The translations under genes and the position numbers were made by a program. This document shows, one piece after another, positions 464 through 1,495 of a stretch of DNA of 24,771 bases. The number at the start of each line of letters is the position of its first letter. The first letter of the stretch is position 1. This DNA comes from Methylophilaceae bacterium (lineage in GTDB: Bacteria > Pseudomonadota > Gammaproteobacteria > Burkholderiales > Methylophilaceae): the NCBI GenBank assembly GCA_041603755.1, contig JBFIDU010000001.1:1-24771 (forward strand), given 5' to 3'. Below the pieces are notes generated by a model that saw nothing but the letters and a program-made list of their open reading frames with translations, was not told where the DNA came from and ran no database searches.

Positions 464-1495
464 ATGAGCGCTATTGATTCAAACGCTGTATTTGAATATT
501 TGCAAAATTTACAAGCACGCATTATAGAATCTGTTGAACTGGTAGATGGCAAAACATTCTTACATGATGGCTGGCAGCGTCCAGAAGGTGGTGGTGGCAA
601 TTCATGCATGTTAGAAGAAGGCAATGTGTTTGAACGTGCGGGTATTGGTTTTTCACATGTACTTGGAAACAAACTACCACCAGCTGCTAGTGTTGCCCAC
701 CCTGAAGCTGCTGGAAGACCATGGGAAGCCATGGGCGTTTCATTAGTATTTCATCCACGCAATCCCTATATTCCTACCGTGCATATGAATGTGCGTTTCT
801 TTGTGGCTAAAGCTGCAAAAAAGACAGATATATCCTCACAGCATTTGGGAGCGAGCCAAGGCGGTGAGGCAGATTTTTCGCAGACAGCACAACAAGTGCG
901 GCAAGAAAAATCTAACGAAACCAACACTGGCGCAGCCCCAAATGATGACGAGGATATTTGGTGGTTTGGCGGCGGCATGGACTTAACGCCCTATTACGGC
1001 TTTGAAGAAGATTGTGTACATTTTCACCGTACCAATAAAACTGCACTGGCACCTTTTGGTGATGAACTCTATCCAGTATTCAAAAAGCAGTGTGACGAAT
1101 ACTTTCACTTAAAGCATCGCAAGGAACCGCGTGGTATTGGTGGTATATTCTTTGATGACTTTAACGAATTAGGGTTTGAAAAAAGTTTTGCGATGCTGCG
1201 TGCAGTTGGGGATGCTTTTACCCAAGCATACCTGCCTATCGTTCAACGCCGTAAAGATACACCCTATGGCGAACGAGAGCGCGACTTTCAACAATACCGC
1301 CGCGGCCGTTATGTAGAGTTTAATTTGGTGTTTGATCGCGGTACGTTATTCGGCTTACAATCTAATGGCCGCACTGAGTCGATACTGCTGTCCATGCCCC
1401 CTATCGTTAAATGGCGTTACGACTGGAAGCCAGAAACTGGCAGTCCTGAAGCAAAACTGTATACTGATTTCTTAATTGATAAAAATTGGATTTAA
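464..1495 (+). CDS. hemF: Oxygen-dependent coproporphyrinogen-III oxidase carrying a 42-aa in-frame insertion
   Basis: [60 protein letters not shown] and [12 protein letters not shown]. At 343 aa it is about 42 aa longer than a typical ~300-aa HemF. Confidence 0.97.
830..957. mobile_element. Miniature palindromic element (MITE-like; ERIC/Correia/RPE-type architecture) inserted in frame in hemF
   Basis: Nested inverted repeats: ATATCCTC 830-837/GAGGATAT 950-957; CATTTGGG 842-849/CCCAAATG 937-944; AGATTTTTC 871-879/GAAAAATCT 905-913; GCAC 887-890/GTGC 896-899. A GATAT direct repeat at 827-831 and 953-957 is exactly 126 bp apart. Confidence 0.85.

Follow-up and report, generated by a model that had tools for sequence, protein, structure and literature searches.

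The hemF locus and its palindromic insert

The window, the whole stretch of 24,771 nucleotides analyzed here, comes from the genome of a methylotrophic bacterium of the Methylophilaceae (contig JBFIDU010000001.1; genome G000) and carries on its forward strand, at positions 464 to 1495, the hemF open reading frame encoding an oxygen-dependent coproporphyrinogen-III oxidase of 343 residues. The product matched the Pfam family Coprogen_oxidas (PF01218; E = 1.4e-124) and PDB entry 8t7w (E = 2.5e-122), the latter in two stretches (residues 8 to 116 and 163 to 343), and all invariant HemF columns were retained in the filled protein. The insert is flanked on either side by intact HemF motifs, as the original prediction had claimed. 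The codons at positions 830 to 955 of the forward strand specify a 42-residue hydrophilic segment (residues 123 to 164), the counterpart of which is absent from every solved HemF. AlphaFold2 assigned pLDDT values below 50 to residues 121 to 159, which lie between strands 105-115 and 165-175; in agreement with the surface loop that had been anticipated, the insert is predicted to be translated into a disordered loop that joins two β-strands.

The element had been described as a long palindrome in frame inside hemF, and every coordinate of that description agreed with the sequence. The whole hairpin-forming element, an imperfect palindrome, occupies positions 827 to 957 of the forward strand, on which its parts are also numbered. 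R1, a covariance model built solely from 34 hemF inserts, matched it at positions 826 to 958 with 145 bits (122 bits with R2), and 37 pairs are kept across 34 species. The 5′ outer arm (830 to 849), which encodes ISSQHLG and forms covarying helix 1, pairs with the 3′ outer arm (937 to 957), the inverted repeats being a perfect 8-nt repeat (830-837/950-957) and CATTTGGG/CCCAAATG (842-849/937-944). The center (871 to 913; helices 4 and 5) consists of an inner 9-bp stem, formed by a perfect 9-nt repeat (871-879/905-913), around an apical 4-bp hairpin (887-890/896-899) with the loop AACAA. The pentanucleotide GATAT is found at 827-831 and again at 953-957, with a spacing of 126 nt. Folding of the element as DNA and as RNA gave -30.2 kcal/mol (z = -7.5) and -51.4 kcal/mol (z = -8.6), respectively, none of 200 dinucleotide shuffles being as good in either case. 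The native sequence also folded better than 500 peptide-keeping synonymous-codon resamplings (-51.7 versus a mean of -28.1; z = -5.2), none of which was as low.

Filled and empty hemF alleles in Methylophilaceae

Alignment of orthologues revealed the empty site in the hemF genes of the closest relatives, the nearest empty alleles being those of G021 and G002 (DNA flanks 87 to 90% identical). The original prediction considered a 126-bp element whose removal would leave 10 residues between FF and WW, but the nearest empty alleles have 12 residues at this place and the filled allele exceeds them by 120 bp. Filled and empty alleles aligned with MAFFT, together with inspection of the junctions, placed this extra DNA at approximately positions 821 to 940 of the forward strand, the boundaries being approximate because short repeats flank it. 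The 42-residue segment is the part absent from solved HemF structures; the indel amounts to 40 codons. The sequence ATAT, which contains TA, is present at both ends of the element, and other short repeats occur at the junctions of the 120-bp indel.

A homologous insert is present at this codon of hemF in ~40 of 361 species of Methylophilaceae, and these carriers belong to at least 12 GTDB genera. The other alleles are empty, are deletion remnants of 30 to 50 residues, or contain stacked double elements; many species have remnants that no longer fold. The distribution is patchy, the alleles are mosaic, and the tree of the hemF flanks requires at least 13 changes. G000 is sister to the empty G021 and G005 to the empty G002, and trees joining the near-identical inserts were rejected (p-AU = 3e-5 and 2e-8). 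The inserts of G000 and G005 are ~97% identical, versus 87% for the flanks (64% at third positions), and G010 and G000 have nearly identical N-flanks. The filled allele is therefore an old presence/absence polymorphism of Methylophilaceae and not a recent private insertion. It appears to move between hemF alleles by homologous recombination and to decay by internal deletion.

The filled allele was assembled in four independent metagenomes, indicating that it is not an artifact, and the insert did not differ among three diverged metagenomic strains. In a search for a cultured carrier, all 12 exact matches to the G000-type core were metagenome-assembled genomes. Metagenome contigs were searched for a filled/empty pair within a strain: only the empty allele of another species (~10% diverged) co-occurred with the filled one, and near-identical contigs contained no filled/empty joints. 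No transposition event was caught in our searches. For the intergenic copies located between iscS and iscU and at C98, all five close relatives carry orthologous copies; since none has an empty site, these copies define no target-site duplication, and they do not support recent mobility in the genus.

The hemF turn could be a hot spot that various members of a superfamily have entered on repeated, independent occasions, as opposed to the site of one old insertion spread by recombination. Two end types adjoin the same Ile codon (ATATCC../..GGATAT, read as EDIWW, and AATCGGC../..GCCGATT, read as QPIWW); half and full elements are stacked in G374, G366, G362, and G166; and the sister genomes G023/G362 and G374/G366 differ in the end type present. 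A linker in a FAD-dependent oxidoreductase behaves similarly, since some species have a Correia-type insert there and G009 and G013 have an unrelated palindrome. However, A-type arms are confined to hemF copies, which score 117 to 146 bits with R1 versus at most 85 bits for every other copy, and mosaic inserts, such as that of G350, in which B-type arms surround the inner module of G000, point to recombination between resident elements. We consider repeated independent hits rather unlikely as the source of the hemF inserts. Once in place, the insert seems to have become a landing site for additional members of that superfamily.

A dispersed family sharing the Correia/NEMIS core

BLASTN of positions 827 to 957 against the G000 genome returned only the query itself, which alone would have wrongly suggested a single copy; a covariance model was therefore needed. 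R1 detected four further copies, one in frame in the FAD-dependent oxidoreductase gene and three intergenic, bringing the total to five copies in G000, two of them in frame in genes. Most relatives have 2 to 10 copies detected by R1, and copy numbers in Methylophilaceae range from 2 to 20. The copies occur in both orientations relative to neighboring genes.

The sequence common to the copies is the core, located at positions 857 to 927 of the forward strand in hemF and identified by its near-invariant columns and by Infernal and nhmmer: CAAGGCG (857-863), CGCAGACAGCAC (879-890), GTGCGGCAAG (896-905), and CAACAC (922-927). Although trained on hemF inserts alone, R1 matched the Correia (CREE) elements of Neisseria at 40 to 54 bits, and a sequence-only profile (nhmmer) matched them with E values of 2e-7 to 9e-6. 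Copies from Neisseria lactamica L224 and from G411/G463, read directly, agreed on the core, and the N. lactamica copy bears the Correia terminal repeat, of which variants have been published (PMC5039591). To judge from these sequences, the ~60- to 70-nt core conserved in the family is the same as that of the Neisseria Correia/NEMIS element. The original prediction, which knew of no described family of this kind in betaproteobacteria, has to be amended in this respect. Core-bearing elements with lineage-specific arms were found in 47 of 151 sampled genomes of the order.

The arms behave differently from the core. The five copies of G000 have the same core and five different arm pairs, and orthologous copies downstream of leuA have arms that are self-complementary but species specific. 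The hemF 3′ outer arm, GAGGATAT, is also found in empty alleles, in which its last 8 to 9 nt provide the E-D-I codons. Similarly, the 3′ arm of the insert in the oxidoreductase of G012 encodes GKLHSQ, as does the empty allele of the sister genome G001. A preformed mobile unit that brings its own terminal repeats would predict neither copy-specific arms nor a 3′ arm present in empty alleles. Both would be expected if the core alone were the mobile or seeding unit, with fold-back or template-switch synthesis copying the 3′ flank in inverted orientation so that the hairpin grows outward. The same facts nevertheless fit empty alleles that are deletion derivatives retaining the tip of the 3′ arm, and the H..G spacing is 25 residues in the empty alleles of Methylophilaceae versus 23 in other families. 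In addition, GKLHS is missing from most other empty oxidoreductase alleles, some of the hemF match would arise by chance because its codons are acidic, and arms are common to the copies of one genome in Neisseria, G035, and G409, as in ordinary MITEs (many copies with shared ends occur in some other families of the order, namely, in G035, G409, and G463). Outward growth from a core thus remains a tentative proposal, to which we give a minor share of the probability.

Constraint on the nucleic acid rather than on the peptide

In relatives with the loop, the palindrome is likewise present and has undergone compensatory changes. Among 34 species, 91.3% of the stem cells pair, versus 29 to 41% with slid partners, and the covariation score is 0.54, against 0.06 to 0.10. 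Changes affecting both sides were found for 26 of the 37 pairs, including 7 of the 8 pairs of helix 4, and the inner stem sequence is replaced in other species by other self-complementary sequences. Identity between species in the stem columns is 62%. In the hemF flanks, conservation is 0.89 at codon positions 1 and 2 versus 0.48 at position 3. The insert displays no such periodicity, with values of 0.68, 0.62 to 0.70, and 0.57 to 0.71 at positions 1, 2, and 3, respectively, indicating that the constraint bears on the nucleic acid and not on the peptide. In the unpaired core, third positions reach 0.71, versus 0.48 in the flanks. Thus, conservation extends to Watson-Crick pairing between the two arms and to the unpaired core sequence but not to the encoded peptide.

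Strong covariation, a fold more stable than that of synonymous resamplings, an unpaired core more conserved than flanking third positions, and an insert unchanged among three diverged strains could all result from selection by the host of a cis-regulatory RNA hairpin that controls hemF expression, for instance as an RNase III site destroying untranslated message or through stability or translation pausing, translation of the loop being a side effect. There is precedent in Neisseria, in which Correia hairpins in mRNAs are RNase III substrates (PMC10969869, PMC2229807). Such a function is difficult to reconcile with the absence of the insert from most Methylophilaceae, including the nearest relatives, with the many remnants that have lost the fold, and with the presence of family copies in both orientations. 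No Rfam 15 family matched the window or the four other copies at the gathering score, or positions 760 to 1020 at E values up to 10. Finally, G-U pairs account for only 2.6% of the pair cells and 23% of the non-Watson-Crick cells, which fits DNA-level copying rather than RNA-level selection, although this argument is indirect. On balance, a regulatory RNA is an unlikely explanation. Selection of a lineage-specific loop for its peptide, in interaction or localization, with incidental palindromy, is highly improbable: the frame is open in 35 of 35 full-length variants and a QTAxQVRQ-like motif recurs, but codon periodicity is lacking, residues vary freely where the partner arm varies (E/P/S/A before D-I), the motif corresponds to the nucleotide core, which intergenic copies conserve as well, and the loop, predicted to be disordered, is dispensable in the nearest relatives.

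Proposed origin and maintenance of the insert

Taken together, the data are probably best explained by a Correia-core hairpin repeat that is lodged in the HemF turn, translated as a tolerated loop, and conserved at the nucleic acid level. This repeat would belong to a dispersed family of miniature hairpins with a conserved core and copy-variable arms. The original insertion would have been transposition-like, mediated by a putative enzyme as for Correia elements, and would have placed the element in frame in the turn between two β-strands. Translation would yield a disordered loop of 40 to 42 residues and leave the enzyme intact, because the frame is open and the site is a surface turn. Pairing of the arms may be kept mainly at the DNA level, through hairpin-templated (template-switch) correction, by which a mutation arising in one arm is transferred to its partner. 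Template switching alone cannot explain conservation of the unpaired core, which requires selection or repeated conversion; this constraint might be exerted by whatever recognizes the core. A role at the level of the host, such as RNase III processing of the hemF mRNA by analogy with Neisseria Correia hairpins, is conceivable but not needed to account for the data.

A bolder proposal, which we advance as speculation with little expectation that it holds in full, is that the Correia core, rather than being filler between transposon ends, constitutes the functional unit of an ancient superfamily distributed across the betaproteobacterial order. It would be a structured module, with internal loops that are conserved, recognized by a putative enzyme or host factor and would seed long hairpins whose arms are made from, or coevolve with, the local sequence. 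The hemF copy would then be under selection at the nucleic acid level and might serve as a site of mRNA processing for the oxygen-dependent heme step.

In-frame palindromic repeats in housekeeping proteins are a known phenomenon, to which the Correia-core repeat of hemF adds in other respects. The Correia element has so far been treated as a Neisseria element, and its core is now found in Methylophilaceae and in about one-third of the sampled genomes of the order, often with copy-specific arms. This assigns the conserved function to the core instead of the ends and opens the way to searching for a partner gene that co-occurs with it. We know of no enzyme that mobilizes Correia elements; if the core is indeed the module, comparing genomes with and without it could identify this long-sought partner. 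The hemF site offers at least 34 diverged orthologous copies of one insertion in which pairing and core are kept and the peptide is not, providing a clean natural system to separate DNA-level maintenance of hairpins by template switching from RNA-level selection. With full, double, chimeric, and decayed elements and a recombining polymorphism at one protein turn, it also shows how enzyme loops arise and vanish.

Comparison with known palindromic repeats

The REP/BIME/REPIN sequences are hairpin repeats located mostly downstream of genes and sometimes within them (PMC3733652). The hemF element is likewise a hairpin repeat but consists of one long hairpin with a conserved center and not of a doublet of short REPs. 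REP/RAYT identity was rejected, since the copies contain neither a GTAG nor a CGTC tag and no Y1 (RAYT/IS200) transposase (PF01797) was found in the G000 genome, which is 84% complete. The BRE of Bordetella, a ~90-bp repeat present across Betaproteobacteria with some copies in coding sequences (Hot et al. 2011, PMC3110155), belongs to a different family, as the sequences in its supplement are GC-rich, tandem, and devoid of the Correia core. The ERIC/IRU element of enterobacteria is a 127-bp hairpin MITE that is sometimes intragenic. An E. coli copy contains short look-alike motifs (AAGGCGACAAG, AACGCA, and the ends TATAC../..GTATA) and scored 17.5 bits with R2 in Infernal, which mostly reflects hairpin shape. 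The sequence-only nhmmer profile did not match ERIC, whereas shuffles reached 10 bits, and blastn of a hemF insert found no match in E. coli, leaving kinship with ERIC unsupported.

Besides Rickettsia, a few other groups are known to have palindromic repeats translated as part of housekeeping proteins. The Rickettsia palindromic elements (RPEs) are in-frame palindromes in housekeeping genes that add surface segments compatible with the fold and are old and common to species (PMC10969869). The proposal that the hemF element is a protein-tolerated palindrome of this sort is supported by the copies, the empty alleles, covariation, folding, and the AlphaFold model: the family is dispersed, the insert is in frame, the host protein is intact, orthologues are empty, and a surface loop is predicted. 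None of the conditions that the original prediction had set for its own refutation held. The FAD-dependent oxidoreductase provides a second in-frame case. The likeness is one of behavior, with no sequence relation claimed, and RPEs differ in being numerous per genome with a high share in open reading frames, whereas the copies here are few and mostly intergenic.

For palindromic repeats in Methylophilaceae and Correia-like elements outside Neisseria, the literature searched contained nothing relevant. Relative to Correia elements in the strict sense, the hemF element has the core but neither the terminal repeat nor a high copy number with shared ends. The 26-bp terminal repeat (TATAGTGGATTAA...) is absent, the arms are copy specific (ATATCCTCACAG.../...GACGAGGATAT in hemF), there are 5 copies per genome versus 100 to 250 in Neisseria, and the tip is GCAC/GTGC in hemF copies versus GTAC/GTAC. 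The 50-bp segment of the long Correia form, a form with an IHF site, is absent; a TA target-site duplication like that of Correia elements is at most putative in the hemF element; and the host is a member of Methylophilaceae, with a hemF copy common to many genera at one orthologous codon. Correia elements are mostly intergenic but can also sit in frame in open reading frames (PMC2229807). The likeness extends to size (105 to 155 nt in one long hairpin), to the order and spacing class of the core (..ACAAGGCG.., ..CGCAGACAGTAC-N5-GTACGGCAAG.., ..CAACGC..), and to the open frame of the core, which reads QTVQxVRQ in Neisseria and QTAQQVRQ in the HemF loop.

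The hemF element folds as a rod within an intact coding sequence

The window begins with the 3' end of purD and carries hemF on the forward strand (464-1495; 343 residues; Pfam Coprogen_oxidas, E = 1e-124), which encodes oxygen-dependent coproporphyrinogen-III oxidase. The sequence confirmed the palindrome at every predicted position: inverted-repeat arms at 830-837/950-957, 842-849/937-944, and 871-879/905-913, an apical stem at 887-890/896-899 with the loop AACAA, and flanking GATAT repeats at 827-831 and 953-957. The element (827-957; 131 nt) formed one rod when folded as single-stranded DNA (-30.2 kcal/mol; z = -7.5 versus shuffles), and RNA folding gave -51.4 (z = -8.6); no shuffle was as stable in DNA or RNA folding. 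The rod also exceeded codon-preserving shuffles, in which the peptide was fixed and codons were resampled from local usage (n = 500), with a native value of -51.7 versus a mean of -28.1 (z = -5.2; 0/500). Permutation of synonymous codons within the insert region gave a z of -4.0.

Solved HemF structures matched the protein in two blocks (residues 8 to 116 and 163 to 343), leaving the insert without a counterpart. AlphaFold2, given an alignment of 47 sequences (mean pLDDT, 72.9; pTM, 0.75), modeled the HemF fold and left residues 121 to 159 without structure (pLDDT, 25 to 42) between strands 105-115 and 165-175, as expected for the surface loop originally proposed. The model fits an insert tolerated as a surface turn.

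The hairpin, not the peptide, is maintained

In an alignment of 34 hemF inserts (mean column identity, 72%), RNAalifold recovered the rod with double changes in 23 of 28 pairs. Covariation was tested on a 37-pair structure, the controls being the 3' partner slid by 1 to 3 columns and column shuffles. Cells were paired in 91.3% of cases, versus 29 to 41% with the slid partner and 70% in column shuffles. Both sides had changed in 26 of the 37 pairs and in 263 cells (33 to 54 with the slid partner), and the covariation score was 0.54 (0.06 to 0.10 with the slid partner). The inner stem of hemF in G000, the genome carrying the window, is AGATTTTTC/GAAAAATCT; in other species it is replaced by wholly unlike but again self-complementary sequences, and the residue preceding D-I varies (E, P, S, or A) jointly with the opposite arm.

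Mean pairwise identities by codon position were calculated with the same species for flanks and insert. The hemF flanks gave 0.89 at positions 1 and 2 and 0.48 at position 3, paired insert columns gave 0.68, 0.62, and 0.57 at positions 1, 2, and 3, and unpaired insert columns gave 0.68, 0.70, and 0.71. By these identities the hemF inserts have no three-base periodicity, and their unpaired third positions are better conserved than third positions of the flanks. As judged from these alignments, the constraint on the insert is on the nucleic acid and not on the peptide, and such unusually clear evidence that a hairpin is maintained within a coding sequence is one of the two main points of interest of the element. 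Counting of pair cells revealed no wobble enrichment in the stem, where G-U made up 2.6% of all pair cells and 23% of those that were not Watson-Crick. The scarcity of G-U pairs argues indirectly for copying at the DNA level over selection acting on an RNA helix.

Filled and empty alleles of hemF

A 68-residue query spanning the hemF site found full-length matches in about 35 to 40 of 361 Methylophilaceae genomes, from at least 12 GTDB genera. Reading of 89 hemF alleles identified 35 full inserts (spacing of 61 to 103 residues), 16 partial inserts (30 to 50 residues), and 38 empty sites. Several of the partial inserts are plainly internal deletions of the full insert of a sister species, e.g., G355 versus G339. 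Four alleles hold one and a half to two elements (L060 in G374, L089 in G166, L088 in G362, and L090 in G366); in these stacked alleles (79- to 103-residue spacing), left halves broken near the core are followed by a complete element. Two end types, A-type and B-type, adjoin the same Ile codon, the two forms being ATATCC../..GGATAT (..EDIWW) and AATCGGC../..GCCGATT (..QPIWW). Chimeras occur as well; in that of G350, for example, B-type arms enclose the inner module of G000.

Only G005, of 21 species in the same GTDB genus, has the insert in common with G000. The empty-site orthologues sought are present in the other species with a readable site, in which 24 to 25 residues separate HMN from FGGG, versus 65 in G000. 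The flanks closest to those of G000 belong to empty alleles (G021, 90% DNA identity; G010 and G002, 87%). Relative to the nearest empty alleles, the extra DNA of G000 amounts to 120 bp in the alignment, and the last 8 to 9 nt of the 3' arm (GAG GAT ATT, E-D-I) occur in empty alleles too; the originally proposed unit of 126 bp, duplicating GATAT or TA, is therefore not established and is only one way to read the site. Excision of 126 bp would restore the spacing of 23 residues seen in families other than Methylophilaceae; the Methylophilaceae empties mostly have 25 residues. In the sample that probably yielded G000, an empty-allele contig from a species about 10% diverged skips 132 nt (814-945) and has 12 other letters instead.

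An assembly artifact is excluded by the presence of the filled allele on contigs of four independent metagenomes (marine, ballast water, soil, and one coded source). Overall divergence is 0.7 to 2.3% for three of these contigs, and none of their listed differences falls between 815 and 982.

Probable recombination among hemF alleles

On a hemF flank tree (810 columns, insert excluded), presence or absence of the insert requires at least 13 changes, and well-supported branches force 10 of these. G000 pairs with the empty G021 (96/92) and G005 with the empty G002 (100/99); the forced clades G000+G005 and G000+G005+G306, groups named after the first tree had been seen, were rejected (p-AU = 3e-5 and 2e-8). 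G306, from another GTDB genus, has a hemF that nests among the window's genus in this tree. The inserts resemble one another far more closely than the flanks do: G000 and G005 differ at 4 of 132 insert nucleotides, all unpaired, with flanks 87% identical overall and 64% at third positions, and G000 and G306 are about 93% identical in the insert and 80% in the flanks. The allele of G010 (L011) differs from that of G000 by one base in the last 150 nt of the N-flank (650-800) and by many in the C-flank. The hemF alleles of the genus are visibly recombination mosaics. The economical reading of these sequences is that the filled state would pass between alleles by homologous recombination in the highly conserved codons on either side, and that many lines would lose the insert by deletion. 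Besides recombination, strong constraint may account for part of the insert's low divergence.

Other copies of the repeat and origin of its arms

BLASTN of the element against the G000 genome returned no second copy. That search would have suggested a single-copy element; R1, a covariance model built from hemF inserts only, found four more copies in G000, all confirmed at 67 to 78 bits by R2, a model from mixed copies. One lies in a gene for an FAD-dependent oxidoreductase (PF21688; contig C77:565-700, minus strand; L107:572-691), in frame and in the sense orientation, one directly downstream of leuA (C2:10363-10468; L108:1501-1606), one in an intergenic region upstream of the next ORF (C98:1088-1191), and one between two tandem ORFs, putative iscS and iscU (C140:2799-2904). 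All five copies have in common the motifs ..ACAAGGCG.., ..CGCAGRCAGTAC-N5-GTACGRCAAG.., and ..CAACGC.., and have five different arm pairs. Relatives have 2 to 10 detectable copies. A Y1 transposase was not found in the G000 genome (84% complete).

The leuA-downstream copy adjoins the leuA stop codon and has orthologues in many congeneric species and in a second genus (L117, L122, L125 to L127, L129, L131, L134, L135, and L137), the core being conserved and the self-complementary arms particular to each species. All five close relatives also carry the C140 and C98 copies, which are therefore old residents; none of these relatives has an empty site defining a target duplication. The oxidoreductase insert, which lengthens the linker preceding the Rossmann GFGPAG motif by about 40 to 45 residues, is polymorphic, being filled in G000, G010 (L138), G021 (L123), and G012 (L120), and the linker is empty (8 to 12 residues) in most other species of the genus. 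The core is read there in the same frame (..QG..VHKVRQ..) as in hemF. The same linker holds a different palindromic insert of about 33 to 35 residues, without the core, in G009 (L276, C1:10640-11100) and G013 (L271, C1:65900-66450). With two unlike palindromic inserts, this linker is a repeated landing place for hairpin repeats.

The arms are copy specific, and in two genes the 3' arm matches sequence of empty alleles: hemF, with E-D-I, and the oxidoreductase gene, with GKLHSQ (G012 versus its sister G001). Two explanations remain, and this match suits both. The 5' arm may have been copied in inverted orientation from the native 3' flank, with fold-back or template switching extending the hairpin from the core, or the empties may be deletion products retaining the arm tip. 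Template switching would maintain pairing without wobble intermediates. It can explain the maintained pairing but not the conserved unpaired core, which would need selection by a recognizer of the core or repeated conversion from other copies.

Relationship to known repeat families

The original view of an in-frame palindromic element resembling the Rickettsia palindromic elements was confirmed as an observation and supported as an interpretation; a described relative does exist in betaproteobacteria, the core being that of Correia/NEMIS (CREE), the Neisseria mini-transposon. An exact-pattern scan with the core matched Neisseria contigs only. A copy from N. lactamica starts with tatagtggattaaatttaaatcaggacaa, a variant of the Correia repeat already in the literature (PMC5039591), and continues with the same core as the hemF element. 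Neisseria elements scored 40 to 54 bits with R1, and a sequence-only HMM of the hemF inserts matched them with E values of 2e-7 to 9e-6 in alignments spanning GACAAGGCG to CAACGC. Of 151 genomes sampled across the GTDB order, 47 had matches at E ≤ 1e-5. The core matches read out from six families (L124, L139, and L226 to L236; G035, G409, G471, G411, G463, G491, G389, G428, and G429) have the same core with lineage-specific arms or terminal repeats, some genomes having at least 20 near-identical copies. Among the copies read, textbook Correia elements were confined to family f52. G409, G471, and G491 have a 130-nt subtype that includes the hemF A-type.

The Bordetella repeat BRE is distinct from the element. 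ERIC ends on the element are not supported: a real E. coli ERIC scored 17.5 bits with R2 but obtained no score from sequence-only profiles. This ERIC, from the E. coli ybhJ-ybhI spacer (L237:110-238), has short look-alikes to the 130-nt subtype (AAGGCGACAAG, AACGCA, and TATAC/GTATA ends), motifs without statistical support at the sequence level. In the literature searched, we found no description of Correia-like elements outside Neisseria or of palindromic repeats in Methylophilaceae.

The hemF element is identified as a Correia-core relative. The other main interest is an order-wide Correia core with non-Correia arms, more than a repeat inside a gene. The hemF element has the defining core in common with Correia/NEMIS but fails the defining terminal repeat and copy-number pattern, and we therefore file it as a relative and not as a member.
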